A stretch of DNA of 64,000 nucleotides from an uncultured Megamonas sp. (GCF_905197185.1 NZ_CAJJXW010000001.1), one strand, 5' to 3'; positions 3,055-36,973 are shown, counted from the first letter of the stretch. Notes: generated by a model from the sequence alone, not told the origin. Made by a program: numbers and translations.

Positions 3055-5541
3055 ATGAATTTACAAGAAAAAATAATGGAATATATGCAAACTAAGGCTA
3101 AAAGACCGATGAGTCAAGAAGATTTATTATATGCTTTAGCTTTAGAAGCAGATGAAATAAGACAATTGCCAACTGCTATGGAAGAATTAGAGAAGAAAAA
3201 TTTACTCATTCAAAATAGAAGTGGTTTATTTGGTTTGCCAAAACATATGAATTTAGTTGTAGGTAAAATGAGCATCACGTCTAAAGGCTTTGGCTTTGTT
3301 ATTCCAGATAATGGATTAGAAGAAGGCAAAGCTAAAGTTGATGATATTTTCATTCCTGCTGGTATGTTAAATTCAGCGATGAATAATGATAAAGTATTAG
3401 TACGCATCACTACTGAAAGAAGTAATTTTTCTAAGCGTGAAGGTGAAGTAATTCGCATTTTAGAGCGTGCTAATAATAAAGTTGTAGGTACTTTTGAGAG
3501 CAGTAGAACTTTTGGTTTTGTAGTTCCAGATGATAATCGTTTAAATCAAGATATTTTTATTGAAGGTCGTAATTTTAATGGAGCAAAAGTGGGCATGAAA
3601 GTAGTGGCTGAAATCACTAAATGGCCTACGAAAAATCACAGTCCAGAAGGTAAGATTGTAGAAGTTTTGGGGAAAATAGGTGCTCCTGGTGTAGATATTT
3701 TATCTGTAATGCGTCAATATGATTTGGCAGAGCAATTTCCTGTAGATGTACAAGAAGAAGCTAAACAAATTGAACAAGTACCTAGTAAAGCAGAATGTAA
3801 TAAACGTAAAGATAGACGCCATTTACAAATAGTAACTATTGATGGTGAAGATGCTAAGGACTTAGATGATGGTGTTTATGCTGAAAAATTGCCAAATGGT
3901 AATTTTTTCTTAGGTGTGTATATTGCTGATGTCAGTCATTATGTAAAAGCTTTTTCACCTTTAGATAAAGAAGCTTATAATCGTGGTACAAGTGTATATT
4001 TGGCGGATAGAGTTATTCCTATGTTACCTGTAGAATTATCTAATGGTATCTGTAGTTTAAATGCTGGTGAAGATAGACTTTCCATGTGTGCGGAAATGGA
4101 AATCGACGCAAATGGTACTGTGATCAAATACGATATTTTCCCTACAGTTATTCATGTATATCGCCGATTAACTTATAAGTTAGTAAATCGTATCTTAGTA
4201 GAAAAAGATACGCAAATGGTTGAAGATAACCAAGATATTTTGCCATTGTTGCATAATTTAGAAGCAGTATATAAAGTTTTAAATAAACGACGTCAAATGC
4301 GTGGCTCTATAGATTTTGATATTCCTGAAGTTAAAGTAAAATTAAATGCTAAAGGTCAAGCTGTAGGCCTTGTAAAACGTGAACATGGCTTAGGTGAATC
4401 TATCATTGAAGAATGTATGTTAGTGGCGAATGAAACCGTAGCTGAACATATGGCTAGAAAAGAATTGCCTTTTATTTATCGTGTGCATGAAGAACCTGTA
4501 GAAGATAAAATGTTTGCCTTAAATGAATTATTGGCTAATTTTAATTTACATCTTAATCGCAATACTGAAGGTGAAATTGAGCCTAGAGCTATTCAAGAAG
4601 TATTAAATTCTATAAAAGGAAAACCAGAAGAAAAAATCATTTCTGCTGTAGCTTTACGTAGTATGCAACAAGCTAAGTATAAGGCAGAAAATTTGGGGCA
4701 TTTTGGTTTGGCTGCTAAATATTATACGCATTTTACTTCACCGATTAGACGTTATCCAGATTTAATCGTTCATCGTTTATTAAAAGAACAATTAAGTGGA
4801 AAAATGACAGCAGAACGTCAAGAAAAGTTAAAATCAAGATTACCTGAAGTAGCTACACATACATCTAAACAAGAACGAGTGGCTACAGAAGCGGAACGCG
4901 AGACAACTTTAATTAAAGAAATCGAATATATGGCTCGTTTCTTGGGTGATGAATTCCATGGTATTATCAGTGGTGTTACAGCTTTTGGCATTTTTGTAGA
5001 ATTAGATAATGGTGTCGAAGGTCTAGTTCATGTATCTACTATGGTAAATGATTATTATGAATATGTAGAAAAAGAATATGCTCTTGTTGGTGAAATGACT
5101 AATTTCAGATATCGTTTAGGTGATGAAGTAACTGTTATTTTGACAAGGGCAAGTATAAAAGAGCGTGCTATTGATTTTATCTTAAAAGATAATGGTAAAA
5201 TGCCTCTTGTTTTTGAAGATGATATAATCGCTAAACCATTTTTTACAGAAATTAATAATAATGTAAAAAAAGATTTAAAGATAAAAGAAAATTTTGCTAG
5301 AGAAAATAAAGCTAGTAAAAAGCAAGCGGATAAATATAAACGCAAAAAACGTAAAGATAAAGAGCATAAAAAAATAGAGGAGAAAAAGAAAAAATCTATT
5401 ACTAAGATAGAAAGCAAGAAAAAAGATAACAAGAAAAGTGCTTTTTATGATAAAATCTATACGAAGAAATCTCGCAAAAAAAGTGGATCTAAAGAACGTG
5501 TGCGAGATAGAGTTTCAAAAGGCAAACGCCGTAAGAAATAA
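3055..5541 (+). CDS. rnr: ribonuclease R with a Lys-rich C-terminal tail
   Basis: 828 aa. RNB-domain motifs (DGEDAKDLDDGV, cold-shock/S1 regions) and a conserved smpB neighbour. Confidence 0.92.
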   Translation: MNLQEKIMEYMQTKAKRPMSQEDLLYALALEADEIRQLPTAMEELEKKNLLIQNRSGLFGLPKHMNLVVGKMSITSKGFGFVIPDNGLEEGKAKVDDIFIPAGMLNSAMNNDKVLVRITTERSNFSKREGEVIRILERANNKVVGTFESSRTFGFVVPDDNRLNQDIFIEGRNFNGAKVGMKVVAEITKWPTKNHSPEGKIVEVLGKIGAPGVDILSVMRQYDLAEQFPVDVQEEAKQIEQVPSKAECNKRKDRRHLQIVTIDGEDAKDLDDGVYAEKLPNGNFFLGVYIADVSHYVKAFSPLDKEAYNRGTSVYLADRVIPMLPVELSNGICSLNAGEDRLSMCAEMEIDANGTVIKYDIFPTVIHVYRRLTYKLVNRILVEKDTQMVEDNQDILPLLHNLEAVYKVLNKRRQMRGSIDFDIPEVKVKLNAKGQAVGLVKREHGLGESIIEECMLVANETVAEHMARKELPFIYRVHEEPVEDKMFALNELLANFNLHLNRNTEGEIEPRAIQEVLNSIKGKPEEKIISAVALRSMQQAKYKAENLGHFGLAAKYYTHFTSPIRRYPDLIVHRLLKEQLSGKMTAERQEKLKSRLPEVATHTSKQERVATEAERETTLIKEIEYMARFLGDEFHGIISGVTAFGIFVELDNGVEGLVHVSTMVNDYYEYVEKEYALVGEMTNFRYRLGDEVTVILTRASIKERAIDFILKDNGKMPLVFEDDIIAKPFFTEINNNVKKDLKIKENFARENKASKKQADKYKRKKRKDKEHKKIEEKKKKSITKIESKKKDNKKSAFYDKIYTKKSRKKSGSKERVRDRVSKGKRRKK

Positions 5542-10060: not shown

Positions 10061-10771
10061 TTATTCAAAATATAGATATACACCTAGTATACCTTGTTTT
10101 TGAGATATCCAGATGGTATTTTCTTTGCTATCTATTTCATTGCTGACAGCATAAGGAAGATTATTATTGAGCATGACTTGGTCAAGTGGCCAATATACAC
10201 CATCAATACTGACACCACTAGACGTACCACATAAAGGAAGAAGAGAAATAGCTTTAGGATGTTGTTTGAGATTTAATGTTAAGTGTTCTTCATTATGTAA
10301 AAAGAACAATATTTCCTTATCATCGGCGATACAGCCATAAAAATTTGATTTTAACATACCGTTAAAGCTGAATATACTGCTAAAAGCATGGTCAAAGCGT
10401 CCACCCCATGCACCTGTTAAAATAACAGTTGATGCAGGATATTTATCATCTATTATTTGTAGTGCTAATTGTGTATCAGTAACATCTTTTTTGGTGGGAA
10501 CTTTTGTTATAGTTACATTGTTATCCACTGCCCATTGCCATGCTTCAGAAGAGGCACTATCACCATCACCTATCAATTGGACTGGTTTGATATTTGCTTG
10601 CTTACAGATATCTATACCATGGTCAGCACAAAACACGTCTTTTCCTTCACTGATAGATTTTAACCATTGTGCATCAGGAGCATTACCTCCGCTCACTAAA
10701 ATTATTTGATTTTCAGGTATTTTATAACCAAATTTTGCTATTAATTGGGGAAGTTCAAGTATATTATTCAT
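10061..10771 (-). CDS. thiamine pyrophosphokinase
   Basis: VSGGNAP...ADHG...GDGDS...GAWGGRFDH motifs are characteristic of TPK catalytic and B1-binding domains. Confidence 0.75.
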   Translation of the reverse strand: MNNILELPQLIAKFGYKIPENQIILVSGGNAPDAQWLKSISEGKDVFCADHGIDICKQANIKPVQLIGDGDSASSEAWQWAVDNNVTITKVPTKKDVTDTQLALQIIDDKYPASTVILTGAWGGRFDHAFSSIFSFNGMLKSNFYGCIADDKEILFFLHNEEHLTLNLKQHPKAISLLPLCGTSSGVSIDGVYWPLDQVMLNNNLPYAVSNEIDSKENTIWISQKQGILGVYLYFE

Positions 10772-11651
10772 ATTGTTTAGCCTCTTTATATATATCTATT
10801 CTTTCATTTAGAGATTTTTTAAACTCTCTAGGTGTTTGTTTAAATATCTGTTTAAATGTTCTTGAAAAGGTGGAGTAATCTTTAAAACCACAATCAAAAC
10901 ATATCTGCGTTAAAGCTATTCCAGATTTAATCTTTTCTTTGGCAAATATTAAACGTTTATTTAATATATATTGATGAATACTGTAACCTGTTTTTAATTT
11001 AAATTTTCTCATTAAATAATATTTGCTTACAAAAAAGCGATTGGCTAAGTAATCAATATTTAATTCTGTAAATAAATGTTCATTTATATAGTCAATGACT
11101 GAGTTTATGGTTTTATCATAAGAAACTTTATGATAAATAGTTAAATTTTTATTATCATTGATGATAGCTCTATTTATTAAAATCATGAATTCCAAAAACT
11201 TTAAGTTATTATATAAATTATGGGCAAATCCTGTATCATTAGAAGATAGCTCTAAATTTTGTATCTGTTTTAAAATATCATTTTCATTAATATTATCCAA
11301 GTTCATAACGTATGAATTGTTATCTTGTGTGTATTTAAAACAAAAATCTAATTTATCATTGTTATCTGTTTGATTCTTTAAATAGTTAGGATTAATATAG
11401 ATGATAATGCGTTCATATGTTGTTGTATCATTGATTATTGGATAATGAATGCAATTATGGGGAACAAAGACGATATCATAAGGAAATAATTGATATGTTT
11501 GTCCTTCAATATTATATTTAACTTTACCACTTAAAAATAAAATTATTTTATCAAATTCATGATAATGAGCTTTGAATTCCATTTTATGGACATCTTTTAA
11601 ATGAAATAATTTAAAATAAGATGTTAAATAGCCTTTTTTTTGATATTCCAT
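10764..11651 (-). CDS. AraC-family transcriptional regulator (cupin + HTH)
   Basis: C-terminal AraC HTH (ICFDCGFKDYSTFSRTFK). RBS AGAGGGA sits before the internal ATG at 11651. Confidence 0.8.
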   Translation of the reverse strand: MEYQKKGYLTSYFKLFHLKDVHKMEFKAHYHEFDKIILFLSGKVKYNIEGQTYQLFPYDIVFVPHNCIHYPIINDTTTYERIIIYINPNYLKNQTDNNDKLDFCFKYTQDNNSYVMNLDNINENDILKQIQNLELSSNDTGFAHNLYNNLKFLEFMILINRAIINDNKNLTIYHKVSYDKTINSVIDYINEHLFTELNIDYLANRFFVSKYYLMRKFKLKTGYSIHQYILNKRLIFAKEKIKSGIALTQICFDCGFKDYSTFSRTFKQIFKQTPREFKKSLNERIDIYKEAKQYE

Positions 11652-11867
11652 AGCTATCCCTCTTTTCATAAATTATACTATACTTTATCTAAAACTTTTT
11701 GGCAAAAATTTTTTTGTCAACTGTTAAATTATAGAGCATTTTTTGCAATATTTTTTGCATTTATCATATAGTATTTGTTATATCTATAATATATAATATA
11801 GTCAATTTGAAGATATGCAATAAATATTCTGAGTATAGATGATTAATTATTTTAAGGAGTGGAAATA

Positions 11868-12343: not shown

Positions 12344-12724
12344 ATGAAGAATATATCTTTAGAAGAAAGATTTTTATCTACAAAAGGTCGAATTAATCGA
12401 AAAATATTTATTTTATATGCAATATCTTTTATTTTATTTTGTTTGTTTTTAATTATACCAACATTATTAATCGTTATCAGCACAACAGATGAAACCATAG
12501 TAGATATCAGTGCAAGTATCGTTTCTACATTGATAGAATTGGCATTATTACCAAGTTTGTTTTTGGGAATTAAGCGATTACATGATTTAGATAAATCGGC
12601 TGTTTGGATAGTTTTATATGTAATTCCCCTAATAAATATATTATTTTTCATCTATTTGTGTTTACGAAGAGGAACCATTGGTGATAATAAATATGGTAAG
12701 GACCCTCTGACATTAGATTTGTGA
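12344..12724 (+). CDS. DUF805-family inner-membrane protein (paralog 1)
   Basis: N-terminal GRINRKxF and RLHD motifs with multiple TMs. Confidence 0.75.
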   Translation: MKNISLEERFLSTKGRINRKIFILYAISFILFCLFLIIPTLLIVISTTDETIVDISASIVSTLIELALLPSLFLGIKRLHDLDKSAVWIVLYVIPLINILFFIYLCLRRGTIGDNKYGKDPLTLDL

Positions 12725-12735
12725 GGAGATTTTTT

Positions 12736-13176
12736 ATGGATTTAGAAGAAAAATATTTTTCTACAGAAGGTAGATTAAATAGAAAACCATTTATTCAGTA
12801 TATAATTTTTTTAATCATCATGCTATTGGCTTTTATAGGTATTATTACCATATTGGGATTGGCAAGTGCTATATCTATTGCTATTTTAAGTGAAAATATC
12901 AATGATTTAAATTTATTAACACAGGTAGAGATAATTCCTATTGTATTAGCTGGTATAGTTTCGATAATATTGATCATATTATTTTTACCACTTAATTTTT
13001 TGATGATACGTCGTCTGCATGATTTGAATTTTAGTGGTTGGTGGATAATATTTCCTATTGTTTTTCCTTGTGGTTATTTTATTTTTATTTTATATTTAAT
13101 TTTGGCTAAAGGTACAAAGGGTTTTAATAAATACGGTGATGATCCTTTAGAGATGACAAAAAGCAGTAATGTTTAA
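12736..13176 (+). CDS. DUF805-family inner-membrane protein (paralog 2)
   Basis: Same EKYFSTEGRLNRKPF...RRLHDLNFSGWW signature. Tandem duplicate. GAGGAG RBS before ATG 12736. Confidence 0.75.
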   Translation: MDLEEKYFSTEGRLNRKPFIQYIIFLIIMLLAFIGIITILGLASAISIAILSENINDLNLLTQVEIIPIVLAGIVSIILIILFLPLNFLMIRRLHDLNFSGWWIIFPIVFPCGYFIFILYLILAKGTKGFNKYGDDPLEMTKSSNV

Positions 13177-16670: not shown

Positions 16671-16984
16671 GAAAATCCCTCACTTATATAAAATATTATC
16701 TACAATTATAAATTTATATTCATAATTATATCATCTATAAAAACAATAAGCTATGAGAAAAATAATACACAAAAGTATCTTGTAAATAGATTTTTTATGG
16801 CTTAAATTTTTAATAATTTTTATAAACCCGCCATTTAATTAACAACTTTACAATATTTATACAAAATCTATAAGGTTTTAAAATTTTTAGCAATAATAAA
16901 ATTAATGAAATTTATCATAATATAATTGACAAAGATTATCACTAATGATAACATAAAACATAAGTAATAAAATATAGATAGAAT

Positions 16985-17237
16985 AGGTGTCTATATAGAC
17001 TTAATAGGGAATTCGGTACAAGCCGAAGCGGTCCTGCCACTGTAAAGACGAGCAATTTCACAATTATGTCACTGAGATAAATTATCTTCTTGGGAAGGCG
17101 TGAATAGTTATGACTCTGAGCCAGGAGAACTGCCTATTTAATAATCACCGTTATTACCTGCGAGCGATGGGAAGGCGATTTTGTACGAATATAAATTTGT
17201 ATAATACTGCCTAATTCTGCGGAATTAGGTTTTTTTA
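16985..17237 (+). promoter_or_regulatory. cobalamin (B12) riboswitch with intrinsic terminator
   Basis: Conserved elements AGGGAA ... GGT ... GCCACTG (B12 box at 17036-17042) are present. Followed by the terminator hairpin cctaattc-tgcg-gaattagg-T7 (17210-17237). Lies upstream of the ABC transporter operon. Confidence 0.75.
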
Positions 17238-17264
17238 TTATATCTTATATTTGTATATAATCAT

Positions 17265-17300
17265 AAAAAAGTCTGCTTGCTAAAGCAGACTTTTTTATTT
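17265..17300 (+). terminator. second rho-independent hairpin in the riboswitch leader
   Basis: aaaaaagtctgcttgc-taa-agcagac-tttttt. Confidence 0.65.
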
Positions 17301-17389
17301 AGAAGATAAACAAAAAATAAAGAAAGGGGCTTGAAGATAATCTACTTAAAGAAATAAATGAAATATAAATATAAAGGAGGCTTTTTATT

Positions 17390-18322
17390 TTGAAACGATT
17401 AATAAATCGTTTAATTCAATTACTAATTACCTTAATTGGAGTCAGTTTTTTAACATTTTGTTTAACTTATTTATCACCTGGTGATCCAGCCACTATGCTC
17501 TTAGAAGCATCAGATACTATTGTTTCTCAAGAAATAATCGAGCAAACTCGTGAAGAAATGGGACTTAATGATCCATTTCTTGTACAATACGGCAATTGGC
17601 TTTTAGGTGTAGTGCAAGGTGATATGGGAATTTCTTATTCAGCTAAAAAACCTGTTATGGATAAATTAATGGAAGGTTTTACAGGAACTGTTTTATTAGC
17701 ATTAACTACAATTATTTTTATTATGGTTATTTCCATTCCTTTAGGAATTTTTTCTGCTACACATCGCAATAAAATTCCTGATTTTTTCGTGAGAATATTT
17801 TCTTTTATTGGTGTATCTATGCCAAGCTTTTGGGTGGGATTGATTTTATTATATATCTTTGGCTTGAAATTAGGTTTAGTTCCCATTGCTACAGCAAAGG
17901 TCAGTTTTTCAGGTTTGATATTGCCCGCACTTACTTTAGCTATTTATCAATCGGCAAAATATACTAGGCAAGTGCGTACCGTTATTTTAGATGAATTACA
18001 TCAAGATTATGTAATTGGTGCTAGAGCTAGAGGATTATCTGAAAAAGCTATTTTAGGGAAACATATTTTACCTAATGCCATTTTACCTTTAATAACTTTA
18101 CTAGGTATGTCCATTGGTTGGTTATTAGGTGGCGTTGCTGTTATTGAGACTGTTTTTTCCTGGCCAGGTATAGGCAAAATGGCAGTTCAAGCGATTACCA
18201 TGCGTGATTATCCATTAATTGAAGGAATTGTTTTATGGATTGCTACAGCATATACAGTAATTAATTTTTTAGTGGATTTATCTTATAGTTATCTCGATCC
18301 AAGAATAAAAAAGGAGAATTGA
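17390..18322 (+). CDS. ABC transporter permease, Opp/Dpp/Nik family (B subunit)
   Basis: Six-TM BPD_transp_1 permease of OppB/NikB type. Confidence 0.85.
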   Translation: MKRLINRLIQLLITLIGVSFLTFCLTYLSPGDPATMLLEASDTIVSQEIIEQTREEMGLNDPFLVQYGNWLLGVVQGDMGISYSAKKPVMDKLMEGFTGTVLLALTTIIFIMVISIPLGIFSATHRNKIPDFFVRIFSFIGVSMPSFWVGLILLYIFGLKLGLVPIATAKVSFSGLILPALTLAIYQSAKYTRQVRTVILDELHQDYVIGARARGLSEKAILGKHILPNAILPLITLLGMSIGWLLGGVAVIETVFSWPGIGKMAVQAITMRDYPLIEGIVLWIATAYTVINFLVDLSYSYLDPRIKKEN

Positions 18323-18328
18323 TACCAT

Positions 18329-19150
18329 ATGATTTTTAAATTTATAAAACAAAATAAATTATTCTCCATATATTCTTTTTTAGTTATTTTAATAATCTGC
18401 ATTGCTGTATTAGCACCAGTTTTAGTGCCTCATGATCCTTATGAAGCCAATATGTTGAAAGCATTACAAATGCCAAATAATGAATATATTTTAGGTACAG
18501 ATAAATTAGGCAGAGATATTTTTTCACGCATAATCTATGGTATGCAAATATCGTTATTTATGACAATTTGCATTGTGATTTTGACGGCAACTATAGGTTC
18601 AATCATAGGTATAATTGCTGGTTATTTTGGCGGTAAAAGCGAAATCATTTTAATGCGTTTGGCAGATATTATGCTTTCTTTTCCAGGAATTATTCTAGCT
18701 ATCGCTATAGCTGGCATCATGGGTGGAAGTATTATAAATACGATTTTCGCCTTAGTCGTCGTGAGTTGGGCAAAATATGCTCGCTTAGTACGAAGCTTAG
18801 TCATAAAATTAAAAAATAATGATTTTATCATCGCTAGTAAAACTAGTGGAGCAACTACATTTACAATTATTTATCATCATTTGCTACCTAATATTTTACC
18901 ATTGATAGTGATTACAGGAGCTATGGATATTGGCACTATGATGATGGAAATAGCAGGATTATCTTTTTTAGGTTTTGGAGCTCAACCACCTACACCAGAA
19001 TGGGGATTAATGCTCAATGAAGGTCGACAATATATCCAAACTGCCCCATGGTTGATGATTTATCCAGGGTTAGCTATTTTTATAGTAGTAGCTATATTTA
19101 ATCTTTGGGGAGATAGCTTACGTGATATTTTAGACCCTAGACAAGATTGA
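18329..19150 (+). CDS. ABC transporter permease, Opp/Dpp/Nik family (C subunit)
   Basis: OppC/NikC-like permease. AAGGAGA RBS. Confidence 0.85.
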   Translation: MIFKFIKQNKLFSIYSFLVILIICIAVLAPVLVPHDPYEANMLKALQMPNNEYILGTDKLGRDIFSRIIYGMQISLFMTICIVILTATIGSIIGIIAGYFGGKSEIILMRLADIMLSFPGIILAIAIAGIMGGSIINTIFALVVVSWAKYARLVRSLVIKLKNNDFIIASKTSGATTFTIIYHHLLPNILPLIVITGAMDIGTMMMEIAGLSFLGFGAQPPTPEWGLMLNEGRQYIQTAPWLMIYPGLAIFIVVAIFNLWGDSLRDILDPRQD

Positions 19151-19181
19151 TAAATTTTATTGATAAGAAAAGAGGCTGAAT

Positions 19182-20765
19182 ATGAAACATTTTAGAATGA
19201 AAAAATTATGGAAGGCTATTAGTTTAAGTCTATGTGGTATATTGACCGCAGGTATAATAGCTGGTTGTGGCTCTGAAAATACAGTAGATAAAACTACTTT
19301 GAAATTTGGAGTTACAAATTTTGCAGATACTTTAGAGCCAACACAAAATTATTTTGGTTGGGTTGTGATGCGTTATGCTATTGGTGAATGTTTAACTAAA
19401 TTTGATGAAAAAATGGAAATACAGCCATGGCTTGCGGAAAGTTGGTCTATTAGTGATGACCATTTAACATGGACTTTTAAAATCCGTGATGATGTAAAAT
19501 TTTCTAATGGCAATCTAGTAACAGCTGAAGCTGTAAAAAAATCTATTGAACGTGCTTTTACTAAAAATACCAGAGCAAAAACTTTCTTTGAATACACAGA
19601 AATGAAAGCTGATGGTCAAAATCTAATAATCACAACAAGCAAACCTCAACCTAATATGATTGGATTTTTAGCTGATCCCTTATTTATTATTGTAGATGTT
19701 ACAGCTGAAGAGCAAGGTCGAGATTTTGCCAAAGAAGGGCCGATTTGTACAGGTCCATATAAAGTAGAGTCTTTTGTTAAAGAAAAAGCTGTAATGGTGA
19801 AAAATGAATATTATTGGGATGGTGAAGTTCCTTTTGAGCGTGTAGAAATACCATCTATTGATGATCCTAATACTCGTGCTATGGCACTACAATCAGGTGA
19901 AGTTAATTTTGCTGTAAATATTGCTCCTGGAGATATAGATTTATTTAGAAATAATGATAATTTCTATATCGATGAAATTTCTTCTTTACGTACAGTACTT
20001 GCTCGCATTAATCAAAAAGGCATTTTAGGTGATGATAAAGTTCGTGCTGCCTTGATTTCTGCTTGTGATCGAGAAAATTATAATAATGTATTGTTAAAAG
20101 GTACATTTATTCCAGGTAAAGCACCAATACCGCCATCCATGGACTATGGCTTTGATGAGTTGACAGATCCAAATGCATATAATAAAGAAAGAGCTAAACA
20201 ATTACTAGCTGAAGCTGGTTGGAAAGACACTGATGGAGATGGTATTTTAGATAAAGATGGCAAAGATTTAAGCCTTGATTTTGTCGTATATAATAGCCGT
20301 GCAGAGCTTCCTTTATACGCTGAAGCTGTACAAGCTGATGCTAAAAAAGTAGGAATTAATATAAATATAAAAAGTGTAGATTATAACCTTATTGATAAAA
20401 TGGGCATTGATGGCGATTATGATTTACTCATCTCTAATATTACAACTGCTAATACTGGAGACCCTGAAATTTATTTAAGTTGGTATTGGAAAACTAATGT
20501 AAATGGAGATAATCCACAAAATGGCTCAGGATATAGTAACCATGAATATGATGAGATTTTAAATCAATTATCTGTCGAATTTGATAAAGAAAAACGTCGT
20601 CAATTAATCATAAAAGCACAACAAATCTTATTAAATGATGGTGCTGCATTATTCTTAGGTTATCCACAGACTAATATTATCAGCACTAAAGGCTTAGATG
20701 GTGTAGTCATGTATCCATCAGATTATTATTGGCTTACTAATAAAATAAAACCAGCTAAAGCATAA
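19182..20765 (+). CDS. ABC transporter substrate-binding lipoprotein, SBP family 5 (NikA/OppA-like)
   Basis: Lipobox LTAGIIAGC and a 527-aa family-5 SBP architecture. Confidence 0.85.
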   Translation: MKHFRMKKLWKAISLSLCGILTAGIIAGCGSENTVDKTTLKFGVTNFADTLEPTQNYFGWVVMRYAIGECLTKFDEKMEIQPWLAESWSISDDHLTWTFKIRDDVKFSNGNLVTAEAVKKSIERAFTKNTRAKTFFEYTEMKADGQNLIITTSKPQPNMIGFLADPLFIIVDVTAEEQGRDFAKEGPICTGPYKVESFVKEKAVMVKNEYYWDGEVPFERVEIPSIDDPNTRAMALQSGEVNFAVNIAPGDIDLFRNNDNFYIDEISSLRTVLARINQKGILGDDKVRAALISACDRENYNNVLLKGTFIPGKAPIPPSMDYGFDELTDPNAYNKERAKQLLAEAGWKDTDGDGILDKDGKDLSLDFVVYNSRAELPLYAEAVQADAKKVGININIKSVDYNLIDKMGIDGDYDLLISNITTANTGDPEIYLSWYWKTNVNGDNPQNGSGYSNHEYDEILNQLSVEFDKEKRRQLIIKAQQILLNDGAALFLGYPQTNIISTKGLDGVVMYPSDYYWLTNKIKPAKA

Positions 20766-20778
20766 AAGGGGTAAATTA

Positions 20779-21570
20779 ATGTTACTTGATGTATCTAATT
20801 TAACTATTCAATATAGCAAAAATATAGAAGCTACAGTTAAAGATATTAATTTTTCTTTGGATAGAGGAGAAATTTTGACCATAGTTGGAGAGTCTGGCTG
20901 TGGTAAAACCACAGTGATTAGAGCCATATTAGGTTGTTTGCCTAATAGCGGAAAGGTTAGAAACGGAAAAATTCTTTTTGAAAATCAAGATTTATTGAAA
21001 TACAACCATAAAGATTGGCTCTCTTTAAGAGGAAAACATATTGCTATGATTTTCCAAGATAGTGGTAATATGTTAAATCCTATCCAAACTATTGGTAAAC
21101 AATTTATAGAATATCTACAAATTCACGATGATCTTACTAAAAAAGAAGCATATTCTTTTGCTGTAGAAATGCTTACTCGTATGAATTTGCCTAATCCTGA
21201 AAATATCATGAAATCATATCCATTTGAATTATCTGGTGGTATGCGTCAGCGTGTTGGTATTGCTATGGCTATTATTTTTAGACCAGAGTTATTGCTTGCT
21301 GATGAACCTACTTCAGCTTTAGATGTTACCACTCAAGCACAAATAGTCAAAGAATTAATGGAGATTCCTCGCACTTGTGGTACAGCAATGATTGTAGTAA
21401 CTCATAATATCGGTGTGGCGGCTTATATGTCAGATAAAATTATGGTAATGAAACAAGGCAAAGTTGTAGAATATGGTAAAGCCGAAGATATAATTAATTC
21501 ACCACAGGCAGAATATACTAAAACTTTACTTGCTTCAGTTCCACAAATAGGAGGACAGCGCTATGTCTAA
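20779..21570 (+). CDS. ABC transporter ATP-binding protein (D subunit)
   Basis: Walker A GESGCGKTT and ABC signature LSGGMRQR. Confidence 0.88.
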   Translation: MLLDVSNLTIQYSKNIEATVKDINFSLDRGEILTIVGESGCGKTTVIRAILGCLPNSGKVRNGKILFENQDLLKYNHKDWLSLRGKHIAMIFQDSGNMLNPIQTIGKQFIEYLQIHDDLTKKEAYSFAVEMLTRMNLPNPENIMKSYPFELSGGMRQRVGIAMAIIFRPELLLADEPTSALDVTTQAQIVKELMEIPRTCGTAMIVVTHNIGVAAYMSDKIMVMKQGKVVEYGKAEDIINSPQAEYTKTLLASVPQIGGQRYV

Positions 21571-22507
21571 AGTTATTATGCAGGTAAAAAATATAACTAA
21601 AAAATTTCCAGCTAGTAATAATAGATTTTTAACAGCTTGTGATGATGTTAGTCTTAATATTAATGCTGGAGAAACAGTAGGCATCGTTGGTGAATCTGGT
21701 TGTGGTAAATCGACTTTAGCTAAAATGATCATGAATATATATAAGCCAACATCAGGTGAGATAATCTATCATAATCAAGATATCACTAAATTAAAGGGAG
21801 AAAATTTACGCCAAAATTACCGCCATATACAAATGATTTTCCAAGATACCATATCAGCTTTTAATCCTAAAATGAAAATTGGTAATATTATCTGTGAGCC
21901 GTTATTGAATTTTAATTTAATAAAAAAATCACAGATGAAAGCAAAAGCTCAAGGGTTACTGCGATTAGTAGAATTACCTGAAGACTTTATAGATAGATAT
22001 CCACATAATTTAAGTGGCGGTCAACGTCAACGTGTAGCTATTGCCAGAGCTTTAGCCTTAGATCCTGAAATCATTGTCTGTGATGAAGCGACATCTGCTC
22101 TTGATGTATCTGTTCAGGCTAAAATCATTGAATTATTAGTAAAACTTCAACGAGAAAAAAACATCACCTATATTTTTATTTGTCATGATTTGGCTTTGGT
22201 TAGTCTATTTAGTCATCGTATAGCTGTAATGTATTTGGGTAATATAGTTGAAAAAATTGATGGCGATAAATTGATCGAAGCAAAGCATCCATATACTAAA
22301 GCTTTATTAAAAGCAGTTTTTTCTCTAGACAATGAGCAAAATAAAAATATAGAAGCTCTTTCTGGTGATATTCCAAGTCCTTTGGATCTACCTAAAGGTT
22401 GTCCATTTCAAAATCGCTGTAAATACTGCAAAGATATCTGTAAACAGGAAAAGCCAAAATTAAAAGAGATATCAACTAATCATCATGTTGCTTGTCATTT
22501 ATTTTAA
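21563..22507 (+). CDS. ABC transporter ATP-binding protein (F subunit)
   Basis: GESGCGKST and LSGGQRQRV motifs, plus a C-terminal oligopeptide/dipeptide-type extension. Overlaps the upstream gene by 8 nt. Confidence 0.88.
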   Translation: MSKVIMQVKNITKKFPASNNRFLTACDDVSLNINAGETVGIVGESGCGKSTLAKMIMNIYKPTSGEIIYHNQDITKLKGENLRQNYRHIQMIFQDTISAFNPKMKIGNIICEPLLNFNLIKKSQMKAKAQGLLRLVELPEDFIDRYPHNLSGGQRQRVAIARALALDPEIIVCDEATSALDVSVQAKIIELLVKLQREKNITYIFICHDLALVSLFSHRIAVMYLGNIVEKIDGDKLIEAKHPYTKALLKAVFSLDNEQNKNIEALSGDIPSPLDLPKGCPFQNRCKYCKDICKQEKPKLKEISTNHHVACHLF

Positions 22508-22544
22508 ATAAAATAATATAAAAATTTTATAGATGGGAGATTTT

Positions 22545-23855
22545 ATGCTATCACAATTGACTTATAAAGAATATCTAAAAGTAACTATTCCCTTTATGTT
22601 ATCCACAGCTACACAGCCTCTACTAGGAGCTGTAAATACTGCTGTTATGGGACATATGTCAGAAGCTTTTTATATAGCTGCTGTTTCTTTGGGAGTAATC
22701 TTATTTAACAATATATATTGGCTATTCGGATTTTTGAGAGTGTCTACTACAAGTTTTTCTGCTCAAGCTTTAGGCAGTGAATCTGCCAAAGATAAATTTT
22801 TAGCTTTAGCTAGACCATTACTTATAGCTGTAGTAATAAGTTTAATATTTTTAATCATTTATCCGTGGATTTTCAAATATTATGCATTGCTCATGAAGCC
22901 TGAAAGCCAAGTTGTTGAATTGATGAAAAATTATTGTGATATCATTATATGGGGAGCTCCGTTTGTCTTAATCAATTATGTAACGCTAGGCTGGCTCATG
23001 GGACAGATGATAATTCGCTATACTATGTTTATGCAAATATCCATGAATGTGTTGAATATCATCTTATCTATCGTATTTGTATTTATCATGGATATGAATA
23101 TTCAAGGTGTAGCCTATGCTTCATTGATTGCTCAAATATATGGTTGTATGATAGGTTTTATCGCTATTTATAAACGAGGAAATTTAACTATTCGCAATGA
23201 ATACATTCAAAGTTTAAAAACTATACAGCCGTTTTTAGGCATGATGAAGGTAAATGTGGATTTAATGTTTCGCACTGTTTGTCTATTGACGATAAATAAT
23301 TTATTTGCCATAGCTGGGGCAAGCATGGGGACAGTTACACTAGCTAGTAATGCTGTTATTTTAGAAATTATTTTTATCGTGGTCTACTTTATTGATGGTA
23401 TGGCAAATGGTGTGAGTGTATTTTCAGGAAAAGCAAAGGGATATAAGGATATAAATCTATTAAATTCAGTATTAAAGATAAGCTTAAGATGTTTAGCTGT
23501 ATTTATAATTTTTATTTCAGTGATTATGTATATCACTAAATCGTATTTTATAAATATGATGACTGATTTAGCAGTCGTAGCTAATTATGCTAACGATTAT
23601 AGTATCTATTTGATTTTGCATCCAATATGTGCTTGTGTGGGATTGCTTTTATATGGTATGTATACAGGTATTGGCAATACAGCTTCTATCAGAAATATGA
23701 TGTTTGTCGCTATGATATTTTTCTATATCTGCCAAAAAATATTGATGTCTTATCTAGGTAATGATGGTATATGGCTAACATATAATTTAACGTATTTATT
23801 AGAATCAATTATTCTCATTTTGTATTTACCGTCACTAAAAAAATATTTTAATTAA
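22545..23855 (+). CDS. MATE-family efflux transporter
   Basis: 12-TM protein with a MATE-like duplicated architecture. Confidence 0.75.
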   Translation: MLSQLTYKEYLKVTIPFMLSTATQPLLGAVNTAVMGHMSEAFYIAAVSLGVILFNNIYWLFGFLRVSTTSFSAQALGSESAKDKFLALARPLLIAVVISLIFLIIYPWIFKYYALLMKPESQVVELMKNYCDIIIWGAPFVLINYVTLGWLMGQMIIRYTMFMQISMNVLNIILSIVFVFIMDMNIQGVAYASLIAQIYGCMIGFIAIYKRGNLTIRNEYIQSLKTIQPFLGMMKVNVDLMFRTVCLLTINNLFAIAGASMGTVTLASNAVILEIIFIVVYFIDGMANGVSVFSGKAKGYKDINLLNSVLKISLRCLAVFIIFISVIMYITKSYFINMMTDLAVVANYANDYSIYLILHPICACVGLLLYGMYTGIGNTASIRNMMFVAMIFFYICQKILMSYLGNDGIWLTYNLTYLLESIILILYLPSLKKYFN

Positions 23856-23857
23856 AG

Positions 23858-23912
23858 AAAACCTACTATAGATTACTTTTAAATAAGTTAATTTATAGTA
23901 GGTTTATTTTTA
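23858..23912. terminator. bidirectional terminator between the MATE gene and the Cof hydrolase gene
   Basis: aaacctactata...tatagtaggttt perfect inverted repeat flanked by A and T runs. Confidence 0.75.
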
Positions 23913-25701: not shown

Positions 25702-25749
25702 CGATTATTGACAAATAATAATTTATAAATTATATTGTATATATAAATT

Positions 25750-25888
25750 AATAACAGGGAGCTAGTAAACTGGCTGAGAGGAAGTTGTGAACTTCGACCT
25801 ATGACCTGATTTGGATAATGCCAACGTAGGATAATATTTGTAGTTTAATGATAATTATAAGAGATGGCATTATGTTATCTCTTTTTTA
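25750..25888 (+). promoter_or_regulatory. TPP (thiamine pyrophosphate) riboswitch with intrinsic terminator
   Basis: CTGAGA ... ACCTGATTTGGATAATGCCAACGTAGGA core. Followed by the terminator aagagatggcattatgttatctc-T6 (25859-25888). Lies upstream of thiSFGH. Confidence 0.75.
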
Positions 25889-26259: not shown

Positions 26260-26898
26260 ATGGCAGATATTTTGGCAAAAGAATTAATTTATCAAACTTT
26301 AAATGACCGCCATGGCATAGTCAATCAAGAAAAATTGAACAACGCTAAAGTGGCTATAGCTGGGCTTGGTGGTTTAGGCTCTAATATTGCTGTGGCACTG
26401 GCTAGAATAGGTGTAGGTCATTTACATTTAATTGATTTTGACAAAGTAGATATCAGTAATCTCAATAGACAACATTATTTCATCTCACATTTAAATAAAT
26501 ATAAAACGCAAGCTTTAGCTGAGCAATTACAAATGATAAATCCTTATTTAAATATCGTTACTGATTGTATAAAAGTAACAGAAGATAATATATTCTCATT
26601 ATTTAAAGATGAAGATATCATCTGTGAAGCTTTTGACGTTCCTGAAAATAAGGCGATGTTAGTAAATAAGGTATTAGAACTTTTCCCCGAAAAATATATC
26701 ATCTCAGGAAGTGGTATGGCGGGTTTTGGTCATAGCAATGAAATTCATACTCGCAAGGTGATGGGCAAATTTTATATCTGTGGTGATGAAAAAACTGCAT
26801 TATCCAATGAAAATAGTTTAATGGCTCCTAGAGTGGCCATTTGTGCTGGTCATCAAGCAAATTTAATCACTCAATTAATTTTAGAAAATAATTTATAA
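26260..26898 (+). CDS. thiF: ThiF/MoeB-family adenylyltransferase (short form)
   Basis: GLGGLGS nucleotide-binding motif, next to thiS. Confidence 0.82.
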   Translation: MADILAKELIYQTLNDRHGIVNQEKLNNAKVAIAGLGGLGSNIAVALARIGVGHLHLIDFDKVDISNLNRQHYFISHLNKYKTQALAEQLQMINPYLNIVTDCIKVTEDNIFSLFKDEDIICEAFDVPENKAMLVNKVLELFPEKYIISGSGMAGFGHSNEIHTRKVMGKFYICGDEKTALSNENSLMAPRVAICAGHQANLITQLILENNL

Positions 26899-26913: not shown

Positions 26914-27672
26914 ATGTGGCAATTAGGAAAACATCAATTCAATTCAAGATTTATTTTAGGTTCTGGTAAATATTCTTTAGAATTAATTCAAGCAGCAATC
27001 AATGAAGCAAAAGCTGAAATCGTAACTTTAGCACTTCGCCGTGTAAATAATGGCGGTATGGCTAATATTTTAGATTACATTCCTAAAGATATAGCACTAC
27101 TCCCTAATACTTCTGGAGCTAGAAATGCTGATGAAGCCATTCGCATAGCTCGTTTATCTAAAGAACTTTGTGGCAGTGATTTAGTAAAAATTGAAATTAT
27201 GCGTGATAGTAAATATCTTTTACCTGATAATTATGAAACTATCAAAGCTACTGAAGTTTTAGCTAAAGAAGGCTTCACTGTTATGCCTTATATGTATCCA
27301 GATTTAAATGTAGCCAGAGATTTAGTAAATGCTGGTGCTAGTTGTGTAATGCCTCTTGGTGCTCCCATCGGTTCTAATAAAGGTTTATGTACAAAAGAAT
27401 TCATTCAAATTCTCATAGATGAAATCGATTTACCAATTATTGTAGATGCTGGTATCGGTAGACCTTCTCAAGCTTGTGAAGCTATGGAAATGGGTGCTAC
27501 TGCTATTATGGCTAATACTGCTATAGCAACAGCAGGTGATGTCGTTCGCATGGCAAAAGCTTTTAATTATGCTATTGAAGCAGGACGCCTCGCTTATGAA
27601 GCAAAATTAGGTCGTGTAAAAGCACAAGGAGCAAGTGCATCTTCTCCATTGACAGGATTTTTACAAGATTGA
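26914..27672 (+). CDS. thiG: thiazole synthase ThiG
   Basis: 252 aa with the FILGSGKY N-terminus and a ThiG TIM-barrel pattern. Confidence 0.88.
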
Positions 27673-27710: not shown

Positions 27711-28928
27711 ATGAATAAAGATAATCATATTAATGAAAGTATTATTAATGATGAAGTAAGAGCTGAATTAAAAAAAGAACGTATTGACCATATGGCATAT
27801 TTACCAGATATGGAAGTTATACCTAGCGATATTTTAGATAAGGTTATAGCTGATATGGATAGTTATGATTATGATAAATATACTGCTCAAGATGTACAAA
27901 CTGCACTTAGTCATGACCATATTACACCAGAAGATTTTAGAGCCTTATTATCTCCAGCAGCACTTCCTTTTCTTGAACAGATAGCACAAAAAGCTCAAAA
28001 AACTACTAAGAGATTTTTTGGTAACTCTATCTATATGTTCACACCAATATATATTGCCAATTACTGCGAGAATTATTGTATCTATTGTGGTTTTAATTGC
28101 CATAACAAAATCAAACGTGCTAAATTGAATTATGATGAAATTGATAAAGAAATGCAGGAAATTGCTAAATCTGGATTGCAGGAAATCTTGATTTTAACAG
28201 GTGAAAGTCGCAAACAATCCAGTATAGAATATATAGGTGAGGCTTGTAAAATAGCTAAAAAATATTTCCGTGTTATTGGACTTGAAATCTATCCATTGAA
28301 TACAGATGAATATGCTTACCTACAAAAATGCGGTGCGGATTATGTAACTGTATTCCAAGAAACATATAATAGCGATAAATATGAAACTCTCCATTTGGCT
28401 GGACATAAACGTATTTTCCCTTATCGTTTCTATGCTCAAGAAAGAGCAATTCGTGGCGGTATGAGAGGCGTTGGCTTTGCTGCACTTTTAGGTTTAGATG
28501 ATTTTAGAAAAGACGCATTAGCTACAGGTATGCATGCATATTATTTACAACAAAAATATCCACATGCAGAAATAGCATTTTCTTGCCCTCGTCTTCGTCC
28601 AATCATTAATAATGATAAAATCAATCCTAAAGATGTACATGAAGCCCAGCTTTTACAAGTTGTATGTGCTTATCGTTTATTTATGCCATCTGCTAGTATT
28701 ACTATATCTACTAGAGAATGTGCTAGAGTTCGTGATAATCTCGTAAATATCGCTACTACAAAAATTTCTGCTGGTGTAAGTACCGCCATCGGTGAACATA
28801 GTCAAGAAAGCGAAGATAAAGGCGATGCTCAATTTGAAATTGCCGACACTCGTTCTGTAGACGAAGTATATCATGATTTAATTCATAACGGCTTACAGCC
28901 TGTTATGGCAGATTATTTATACGTATAA
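27711..28928 (+). CDS. thiH: 2-iminoacetate synthase ThiH (radical SAM)
   Basis: CENYCIYCGF radical-SAM cysteine motif. 405 aa. Confidence 0.85.
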   Translation: MNKDNHINESIINDEVRAELKKERIDHMAYLPDMEVIPSDILDKVIADMDSYDYDKYTAQDVQTALSHDHITPEDFRALLSPAALPFLEQIAQKAQKTTKRFFGNSIYMFTPIYIANYCENYCIYCGFNCHNKIKRAKLNYDEIDKEMQEIAKSGLQEILILTGESRKQSSIEYIGEACKIAKKYFRVIGLEIYPLNTDEYAYLQKCGADYVTVFQETYNSDKYETLHLAGHKRIFPYRFYAQERAIRGGMRGVGFAALLGLDDFRKDALATGMHAYYLQQKYPHAEIAFSCPRLRPIINNDKINPKDVHEAQLLQVVCAYRLFMPSASITISTRECARVRDNLVNIATTKISAGVSTAIGEHSQESEDKGDAQFEIADTRSVDEVYHDLIHNGLQPVMADYLYV

Positions 28929-36654: not shown

Positions 36655-36785
36655 TGTATTTTCCTTTCTGAATATCTTAAAAATGGGTACAAAAAAGCAC
36701 CTTCTTAGGTGCTTAACTAATAAATTTATGTTATACTATTTTCGTTACTCAACTCCAATCTGGTAACAGAGAGGAGGTGCATATA

Positions 36786-36875
36786 ATGAACTTCACTGAT
36801 ATTGTTGTGCTTATTATGGTAAATGTAATCTCTTACTTCATTTACAAATGGATAGATAAGCACTTTTTTGAGTAA
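36786..36875 (+). CDS. Fst/Ldr-like type I toxin peptide (29 aa)
   Basis: MNFTDIVVLIMVNVISYFIYKWIDKHFFE is a single TM helix with a charged tail and a YxxYKW aromatic motif. Strong RBS GAGAGGAGGTG. Sits in par-like architecture with direct repeats, a bidirectional terminator and a convergent promoter. Confidence 0.6.
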   Translation: MNFTDIVVLIMVNVISYFIYKWIDKHFFE

Positions 36876-36909
36876 CTATCCTAACGCTCTAGCATTAGTG
36901 CAATAATGT

Positions 36910-36945
36910 AAAAACCCTTAGGAACTACCACTTCCTAAGGGTTTT
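36910..36945. terminator. bidirectional rho-independent terminator shared by the toxin mRNA and the antisense RNA
   Basis: aaaaa-cccttagg-aactaccactt-cctaaggg-tttt. Confidence 0.75.
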
Positions 36946-36973
36946 GTGCATTATAATGAACTTCACTGTTTCT
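36910..36973 (-). ncRNA. candidate antisense antitoxin sRNA (RNA II-like, about 64 nt)
   Basis: Minus-strand sigma-A-like promoter TTGCAA (37002-37007), 16-nt spacer, TATACT (36980-36985). The transcript would contain the complement of the 16-20 nt repeat ataatgaacttcactg (copy 2 at 36953-36968) that overlaps the toxin start codon (copy 1 at 36783-36798). It ends at the shared terminator. Confidence 0.5.

Follow-up and report, generated by a model that had tools for sequence, protein, structure and literature searches.

A conserved cobalamin riboswitch with tandem terminator-like hairpins precedes a Nik-type ABC transporter operon, a candidate cobalt importer, in Megamonas

In Staphylococcus aureus, the substrate of the ATP-binding cassette (ABC) transporter NikBCDE/NikA is nickel-histidine. 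Related systems elsewhere have been assigned to cobalt by their regulation: the NikABCDE-family systems of Clostridium tetani and Desulfitobacterium hafniense are predicted to be preceded by B12 riboswitches and are counted as cobalt systems by Zhang et al. 2009 (PMC2667541), who cite Rodionov et al. 2006. A review of 2021 restates the rule by which B12 riboswitches go with cobalt uptake and NikR goes with nickel uptake, and recounts that the cobalt importer CbtJKL, owing to the likeness of CbtJ to BtuF, was at first mistaken for a cobalamin transporter (PMC7689651). Here we analyse a stretch of 64,000 nucleotides from an uncultured Megamonas sp. (GCF_905197185.1, NZ_CAJJXW010000001.1; "the window" denotes this whole stretch), in which a cobalamin riboswitch precedes an operon for a transporter of the peptide/nickel family. 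An earlier note on this DNA had stated that comparative genomics had proposed Nik-type cobalt transporters linked to B12 riboswitches, which the NikABCDE cases bear out; the label "CbtJKL type" that it attached does not fit, CbtJ being BtuF-like and of a different ABC family (PMC7689651).

We consider the best explanation of this locus, with a probability of about 0.6, to be a B12-repressed metal-uptake operon that imports cobalt, probably as a small chelate. Cobalt is favoured because a Nik-type system, conserved B12 control, neighbouring genes of cobalt and B12 metabolism and an SLH-porin partner, the last two seen in relatives, come together. The leader contains the following features, with positions counted from the first letter of the window:

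16926 to 16954, plus strand: candidate sigma-70 promoter by consensus match alone (TTGACA, 17 nt, TG-n-TAACAT; 10/12 match with extended TG)
16968 to 17151, plus strand: cobalamin (B12) riboswitch aptamer (RF00174, 99.3 bits)
17152 to 17208, plus strand: expression-platform linker, holding the invariant box ACCTGCGAG(C/T)GATGGGAAGGCGATTTTG
17209 to 17237, plus strand: terminator 1, an intrinsic terminator found by terminator scan, with a 9-bp stem, GCCTAATTC-TGCG-GAATTAGGT, followed by seven T
17266 to 17297, plus strand: terminator-like hairpin 2, A6-GTCTGCTT-GCTA-AAGCAGAC-T6, with an 8-bp stem

As the earlier note had claimed, a true cobalamin riboswitch occupies the leader, and its expression platform is of the terminator type. 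In the Rfam scan of the whole window, the RF00174 match lies far above the gathering score of 31.5 (E = 1.3e-23), and its alignment covers the complete model, positions 1-189 of 189. The two motifs by which the leader had been recognized, AGGGAA (17004-17009) and GCCACTG (17036-17042), are both present inside the aptamer. The Rfam alignment assigns GCCACTG to the conserved "GCaACUG" segment, upstream of the B12 box, and places the box itself (consensus "gCCACUG") at 17068-17074, where the sequence is GTCACTG; the start at 16985 that had been proposed lies 17 nt inside the aptamer. Orthologous aptamers in relatives score 75-105 bits, at an unchanged position. The candidate promoter is the top promoter-like match of the intergenic region in a promoter scan, and its -35 element, TTGACA, is kept in Megamonas hypermegale and Candidatus Megamonas gallistercoris; between hairpin 2 and the first permease gene, nothing reached the thresholds of the scan. 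We also considered an L5-L13 kissing loop: in the window, and likewise in M. hypermegale, TACAA of L5 could base-pair with TTGTA (17181-17185 of the window). No covariation accompanies it in the leader of a Selenomonadaceae metagenome-assembled genome (MAG; locus L003), and we do not claim it.

Terminator 1 begins 58 nt past the aptamer and has a folding free energy (dG) of -11.7 kcal/mol. Its stem is preserved in L003 by compensatory changes, A to G in one arm and T to C in the other. Within the linker, the box at 17157-17185 has one variable position among four aligned leaders, and part of it can pair, as read from the sequences, with the 5' arm of terminator 1 in each of them; we regard it as a candidate antiterminator or P13 region. 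Hairpin 2 follows in tandem, 35 nt downstream of terminator 1, with a dG of -20.2 kcal/mol including its A/T extension, and was overlooked by both automatic terminator scans because its A-run pairs with its T-run. The hairpin and its T-run, with an altered stem sequence, are kept in M. hypermegale, Ca. M. gallistercoris and L003, and this conservation of structure in three other lineages despite the changed stem argues that hairpin 2 is functional in some way. That it might be a repeated or mobile element is ruled out by its single copy in the window. A simple scan of 43 riboswitch-bearing leaders found at least one hairpin with a T-run in 35 and two such hairpins in 7. The simplest reading is that hairpin 2 is probably a tandem fail-safe terminator. 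The second hairpin of the earlier note is thus real, conserved and terminator-like; the second layer of attenuation proposed with it, in the sense of an independent second signal, finds no support.

These elements suggest how the operon could be controlled, by the logic of a classical off-switch. Transcription from the putative sigma-70 promoter would produce a leader that folds into the cobalamin riboswitch. When cobamide is high, the ligand-bound aptamer would permit terminator 1 to form and transcription would halt, a direction of regulation that we infer; hairpin 2 would probably stop read-through and make the shut-off tighter. Under cobamide scarcity a different pairing, probably of the GGGAAGGCG box with the 5' arm of the terminator, would block terminator 1, and RNA polymerase would read on into the two permease genes and those for a substrate-binding protein (SBP), two ATPases and a transporter of the MATE family. 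The importer, an ABC system of the S. aureus NikBCDE/NikA type, would most likely bring in cobalt for corrin synthesis, probably as a small chelate rather than as the bare ion, and possibly nickel too. The succinate pathway of Megamonas, Selenomonas and Veillonella needs a corrinoid enzyme, and corrinoids are a requirement of these propionate-forming Negativicutes.

The genes of the unit and the hairpin that follows them are:

17390 to 18322, plus strand: permease 1 (NikB/Opp2B-type; TTG start, AAGGAGG 10 nt upstream; Pfam BPD_transp_1)
18329 to 19150, plus strand: permease 2 (NikC/Opp2C-type; NCBIfam NF045474)
19182 to 20765, plus strand: substrate-binding lipoprotein (Pfam PF00496, SBP_bac_5; lipobox IIAGC at residues 25-29)
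20779 to 21570, plus strand: ATPase 1 (NikD/OppD-type; ABC_tran)
21563 to 22507, plus strand: ATPase 2 (NikE/OppF-type; ABC_tran and a C-terminal oligo_HPY domain)
22533 to 23855, plus strand: MATE-family transporter (Pfam MatE; likely true start ATG 22546, after GGGAG)
23853 to 23912, no strand assigned: strong hairpin, found by folding, between the convergent MATE (plus) and HAD hydrolase (minus) genes

Five genes in the order permease, permease, SBP, ATPase, ATPase had been described before, and that order stands; the unit very probably includes a sixth. The MATE gene (NCBIfam TIGR00797, 195.5 bits against a cut-off of 147.4) starts 25-38 nt past the ATPase 2 gene, and the gap holds no terminator. 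The first strong plus-strand terminator of the unit is the hairpin past the MATE stop codon (dG -23.2 kcal/mol, z -6.05; 0/200 shuffles fold equally well), a probable bidirectional terminator that would mark the end of the unit. Since no terminator separates MATE from the ATPase genes and the first strong one follows it, the six genes are very probably co-transcribed.

The link between riboswitch and operon is widely conserved. Our comparative set held 80 orthologous loci with SBPs 71-89% identical to that of the window, the best genome match being M. hypermegale at 89% identity; 71 loci were assessable and 9 were too short. The riboswitch stands upstream of the operon in 47 of the 71, in Megamonas, Selenomonas, Mitsuokella, Anaerovibrio, Propionispira and many Selenomonadaceae MAGs. 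It is absent from 24, of which 20 are Veillonella. Beyond this set, Paenibacillus xylanexedens, whose SBP is 40% identical, has a 115-bit riboswitch directly upstream of an operon with the same gene order, B-C-A-D-E; a riboswitch also stands directly upstream in a second distant relative (SBP 39% identical) and heads the operon of locus L088.

The Veillonella loci carry a leader of their own, about 190 nt long and highly conserved (L020, about 3940-4217; 20 loci within L019-L061), which contains a tiny open reading frame (ORF), MGKMEQDCLNYSPC, and ends in a CCACC...GGTGG hairpin and T-run just ahead of the first permease gene. It matched no Rfam family (best E 0.67), and its RNAalifold structure shows a compensatory change in 2 of 41 pairs, among sequences too similar for a covariation test; it could be an undescribed regulatory leader. 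Other riboswitches occur around the orthologous operons. A Mitsuokella MAG (L022, 1723-1905, minus strand) has a second cobalamin riboswitch of 90.6 bits, 1.7 kb upstream and diverging from the MATE/operon side, and the minus-strand ORFs tried as its target gave no Pfam match. Directly downstream of the riboswitch-less operon of two Anaerovibrio/Veillonellaceae MAGs lies a flavin mononucleotide (FMN) riboswitch of about 104 bits (L017, 6472-6633; L018, 8094-8255).

Comparison with curated protein families supports placing the transporter in the Nik-type branch of the peptide/nickel family, that of S. aureus Opp2/Opp5A, and not in the oligopeptide branch, a preference already voiced in the earlier note. 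The make-up is the five-component one, with two permeases, one cluster-C SBP and two ATPases. Permease 1 scores 389.5 bits with NF045470, the Opp2B nickel ABC transporter permease (cut-off 350), and permease 2 scores 339.6 bits with NF045474, the Opp2C nickel transporter permease (cut-off 300); both fall far under the OppB/C and DppB/C cut-offs, with 158.6 bits against 388 for permease 1 on OppB and 178.1 against 433 on the OppC model. The SBP likewise scores far from peptide-binding proteins (OppA, 76.9 bits against 947; DppA, 103.7 against 1005). In the PDB it comes closest to 3t66 (1.6e-57), a protein of Bacillus from structural genomics that bears the label nickel-binding, and Brucella, E. 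coli and S. aureus NikA rank next; Bacillus subtilis AppA is about equal to E. coli NikA in score, and haem-binding HbpA proteins are among the relatives. In a neighbour-joining tree of 49 distant representatives and reference proteins (100 bootstraps), with DppA and OppA as the two peptide-binding outgroups, the SBP clusters with S. aureus NikA, to which it is about 27% identical, and with 3t66 in 100/100 bootstraps. E. coli and Brucella NikA form a clade of their own (100/100), and DppA and OppA fall outside. The ATPases score under every cut-off, ATPase 1 at 252-258 bits with the OppD, NikD, CntF and CntD models and ATPase 2 at about 335 bits with DppF/OppF-type models and 274 with NikE. 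Cnt models also remain under their cut-offs (CntA, 150.4 bits against 800; CntC, 248.8 against 440; CntD and CntF, about 252 against 380-385). An AlphaFold model of the SBP, built on a 12-sequence alignment, was too poor for inspecting the pocket or searching by fold (mean pLDDT 53.9, pTM 0.47) and was not used.

In relatives, the genes that accompany the operon speak for a link with cobalt and the synthesis of B12. In Propionispira arboris the riboswitch is followed by a CbiK cobaltochelatase gene (Pfam 1.3e-77), MATE and the operon, and a CbiK-like gene lies downstream of the operon in L039. In Selenomonas ruminantium, CbiD and CbiE (both over cut-off) and then MATE stand directly upstream of the operon. 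GTPases of the CobW/HypB/UreG type are found near the operon in M. hypermegale and Anaerovibrio, and the Veillonella loci contain a CorA-like gene and a heavy-metal P-type ATPase. In M. hypermegale (L001, 9435-12026 onward) a LysR-type regulator directly downstream of the operon is followed by an E. coli-type NikA and a permease. This second NikA, which has no counterpart at this position in the window, keeps 6 of the 7 ligand residues of the E. coli protein, and its locus is probably the true nickel system. The system under B12 control is, accordingly, a separate paralogue.

A recurrent companion of the operon is MATE. Of the 36 loci whose flanks are complete, 27 have a MATE gene on the same strand, no more than 1.8 kb from the operon; these genes represent three or more MATE subtypes and stand in at least six different arrangements. 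MATE may follow the ATPase genes, the window being an example, occupy the gap between riboswitch and permeases, come after CbiK, close a cbi cluster immediately ahead of the riboswitch, or stand beside the distant relatives; loci with MATE include the window, L005, L012, L016, L020, L041, L055, L060, L063, L086, L087 and L088. In five of these (L016, L041, L055, L060 and L088), MATE is itself under the riboswitch. This repeated re-association suggests functional coupling. In several Selenomonadaceae and Veillonellaceae loci, genes for SLH-domain outer-membrane proteins with a Porin_4 barrel sit between the riboswitch and the permease genes (L016, 1986-3245; L041, 2802-4172; L063, 2434-3825; L088, 6916-8172), and in L088 the riboswitch heads a seven-gene unit of MATE, SLH-porin and the five ABC genes. 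The SLH-porins are of the general-porin type, with no TonB-dependent receptor, and their position suggests a dedicated, B12-controlled outer-membrane channel. The absence of a TonB-dependent receptor argues against a 1.3-kDa corrinoid and for a small substrate.

The gap between the SBP and ATPase 1 genes is a hot spot for the insertion of cassettes of 1.5-5 kb (L046, L047, L053, L065, L070, L073, L074, L076). The cassette of L047 encodes a C5 DNA methyltransferase and that of L076 an N6 methyltransferase and a type I S subunit; those of L047, L053 and L065 carry a 470-aa membrane protein without Pfam match and an enzyme resembling serine hydroxymethyltransferase.

Several observations weigh against a dedicated cobalt importer. 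The choice of cobalt over nickel or a corrinoid is itself inferred from context, and the window has no cbi genes among the neighbours of the operon that we inspected. About 20 Veillonella orthologues, 73-75% identical, have a different leader in place of the B12 riboswitch, and B12 control is therefore not universal for this protein family. The SBP has Opp5A_nikA as its top NCBIfam family at 334.8 bits, under the cut-off of 600, and reaches 189.9 bits with TIGR02294 (nickel_nikA), under the cut-off of 393. Among the seven ligand contacts of E. coli NikA (Met27, Arg97, Trp100, Arg137, Trp398, Tyr402 and His416), it keeps Arg97 alone, with Val, Phe, Asp, Thr, Thr and Asn at the other six positions. 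This loss indicates another mode of binding, still compatible with a metal ligand, and is not decisive because S. aureus NikA also lacks the E. coli residues. L086, a distant relative under B12-riboswitch control, has a urease-gamma ORF of 79 aa just past MATE (10900-11139), a possible link to nickel for its clade. Finally, an unconditional hairpin 2 would restrict expression at low B12 as well.

B12 riboswitches very often control corrinoid uptake, and an alternative substrate would be cobinamide, another incomplete corrinoid or a tetrapyrrole, taken up in the manner of BtuFCD and excluded when B12 is plentiful; we know of no corrinoid importer in the Opp/Nik family, and the literature searched held none. 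Uptake genes are listed among the targets of B12 riboswitches (PMC7689651), the SBP is without the nickel-site residues of E. coli NikA, and haem, which E. coli NikA is reported to bind (PMC2667541), is also the ligand of the HbpA relatives. The SBP is nonetheless an SBP_bac_5 protein and not of the BtuF type, the permeases pass the cut-offs of nickel-permease equivalogs, the co-regulated outer-membrane protein is a general-type porin that favours a small solute, and the CbiK, CobW-type GTPase, CorA and P-type ATPase neighbours indicate a metal ion, which together make a corrinoid unlikely. If the metal were mainly nickel, as for S. aureus NikABCDE, B12 control would be incidental to this lineage. 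The curated equivalog models do name the permeases nickel permeases, the nearest solved relatives of the SBP are nickel-binding proteins, a urease-gamma fragment lies near one distant relative, and Veillonella has no riboswitch. A physiological reason for B12 to repress nickel uptake is wanting, however, and the riboswitch link is kept at a distance of 40% identity, with cbi, CbiK and CobW-type genes near. Together with the separate canonical NikA paralogue of M. hypermegale and the published rule that assigns B12 riboswitches to cobalt and NikR to nickel (PMC7689651, PMC2667541), this renders a primary role in nickel uptake improbable. Least credible is an ordinary oligo- or dipeptide importer whose B12 control would serve amino-acid economy, for example by supplying methionine when the B12-dependent methionine synthase is idle. 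Membership of the peptide/nickel superfamily, ATPases that score best on OppD, OppF and DppF, and the score of AppA speak for it; the Opp2B and Opp2C models pass where OppA, DppA, OppB and OppC fall far short, every bootstrap places the SBP with S. aureus NikA and 3t66, and the neighbourhood is one of metals and B12, not peptides.

Within the preferred reading of a cobalt importer, a more specific form can be drawn by analogy with the staphylopine system CntE/CntABCDF: MATE would export a small metal chelator, and the cobalt complex would come back by way of the ABC importer and, in loci that have one, the SLH-porin. We hold this form, attractive as it is, to be possible but not likely, and put it forward tentatively. 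In its favour are the adjacency of MATE on the same strand across so many arrangements and subtypes, its place under the riboswitch in five loci, its position at the close of the S. ruminantium cbi cluster and beside the distant relatives L086 and L087, and the fact that Nik-family SBPs typically bind chelated metal, such as Ni-(His)2 (PMC7689651, reference 129). Genes for chelator biosynthesis resembling CntK/L/M were, on the other hand, seen in none of the loci inspected, similarity to CntA is low, and M. hypermegale and many Selenomonadaceae MAG loci have no adjacent MATE; MATE substrates, moreover, are unpredictable from sequence, and the literature searched gave no precedent. Extended to diderm Firmicutes at large, the scheme becomes a speculative and rather doubtful one, of which L088, L016 and L041 are the clearest examples: the B12 riboswitch would govern a complete module of three parts for scavenging cobalt, in which chelator export by MATE, passage through the SLH-porin across the outer membrane and Nik-type import would form a "cobaltophore" shuttle devoted to making B12. 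The window would hold the version with MATE and ABC genes, and Veillonella would run the same module under its own leader of about 190 nt.

Elsewhere in the window, the neighbours of the operon offered no functional clue. FabV, ScpA, an M50-like protein and a Nudix hydrolase upstream are unrelated to it, as are the HAD hydrolase, an EamA transporter and a thi operon downstream; no nikR-like gene is among the annotated neighbours, and NikR operators were not searched for. The thi operon follows a thiamine pyrophosphate (TPP) riboswitch (25745-25850, plus strand; 58.9 bits against 54.3), with thiF (26260-26898), thiG (26914-27672) and a third gene (27711-28928); it is an ordinary thiamine-biosynthesis operon, with a gap of about 400 nt between aptamer and thiF. 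At 36751-36957 (plus strand), Rfam reports a match to the Streptococcus small RNA SpF66 (RF02442, 49.2 bits against 42, alignment accuracy 0.69) that ends, in this Negativicutes genome, in a terminator-like hairpin and may be a distant relative or a marginal match. A few kb upstream of the operon are two adjacent genes for DUF805 membrane proteins (12344-13176, plus strand) and, near them, an AraC-family regulator (10764-11669, minus strand) and thiamine pyrophosphokinase (10061-10771, minus strand).

Megamonas, Selenomonas and Veillonella are abundant propionate producers of gut and rumen, and their cobalt supply bears on propionate output and on the B12 ecology of the gut. The locus offers a well-defined and broadly conserved candidate cobalt importer; throughout its clade, the "peptide" or "nickel" transporter label that automatic annotation assigns is probably misleading. 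The repeated presence of MATE and porin genes beside the operon suggests that cobalt may be scavenged in chelated form. The literature searched contained no experimental or biochemical characterisation of any Nik-type cobalt importer, and our searches returned nothing specific on this system in Negativicutes, on MATE-Nik pairing or on Megamonas B12 metabolism.

Among known systems, S. aureus NikBCDE (Opp2) and NikA (Opp5A) resemble the window operon by protein family, the permeases passing the Opp2B and Opp2C cut-offs and the SBP falling in the S. aureus NikA clade. Unlike in S. aureus, the SBP gene lies inside the operon, the operon is under a B12 riboswitch and the SBP remains below the family cut-off. 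CntABCDF and CntE pair an importer of the Nik/Opp family with an exporter of an efflux family in one locus, and move metal-chelator complexes including those of cobalt and nickel. CntE is an MFS protein, and Cnt control is by Zur/Fur. In the window the exporter is a MATE protein and control is by B12, the Cnt-model scores are far below the cut-offs, and CntKLM genes were unseen in the window and the related loci inspected.

The architecture of CbtJKL is one binding protein, one permease and one ATPase. It belongs to another ABC family than the window system, in which an SBP_bac_5 protein is joined by a pair of permeases and a pair of ATPases. What the two have in common is the logic of regulation and the substrate that is proposed, CbtJKL of Sinorhizobium meliloti being an ABC cobalt importer under an adenosylcobalamin riboswitch (PMC7689651). 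CbiMNQO, an energy-coupling factor (ECF) transporter, lacks a solute-binding protein and has no sequence relationship with the window operon. The cbiMNQO genes often stand at the end of cbi clusters, the position that the operon takes in S. ruminantium. CbiMNQO, a system of cobalt supply, is encoded and co-regulated with B12 biosynthesis genes (PMC7689651, PMC2667541). E. coli NikABCDE, an importer of Ni-(L-His)2 (PMC7689651, reference 129), has the five-component architecture and the superfamily in common with the window system, but falls in a separate clade, has the order A-B-C-D-E, is controlled by NikR (PMC2667541) and has six of seven ligand residues that the window SBP does not share.

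The systems of C. tetani and D. hafniense resemble the locus in their arrangement, a Nik-family five-component ABC system right behind a cobalamin riboswitch, from which cobalt was predicted. Both are predictions in Clostridia, and we liken them to the window by description rather than by a comparison of orthology. Unlike them, the window belongs to Negativicutes, its operon runs B-C-A-D-E behind tandem terminators, and a MATE gene is linked to it, joined in relatives by a porin gene. By the citation of Zhang et al. 2009, the operon belongs to a class already predicted in 2006, and its recurrent MATE and porin partners are the sole element that is possibly new.

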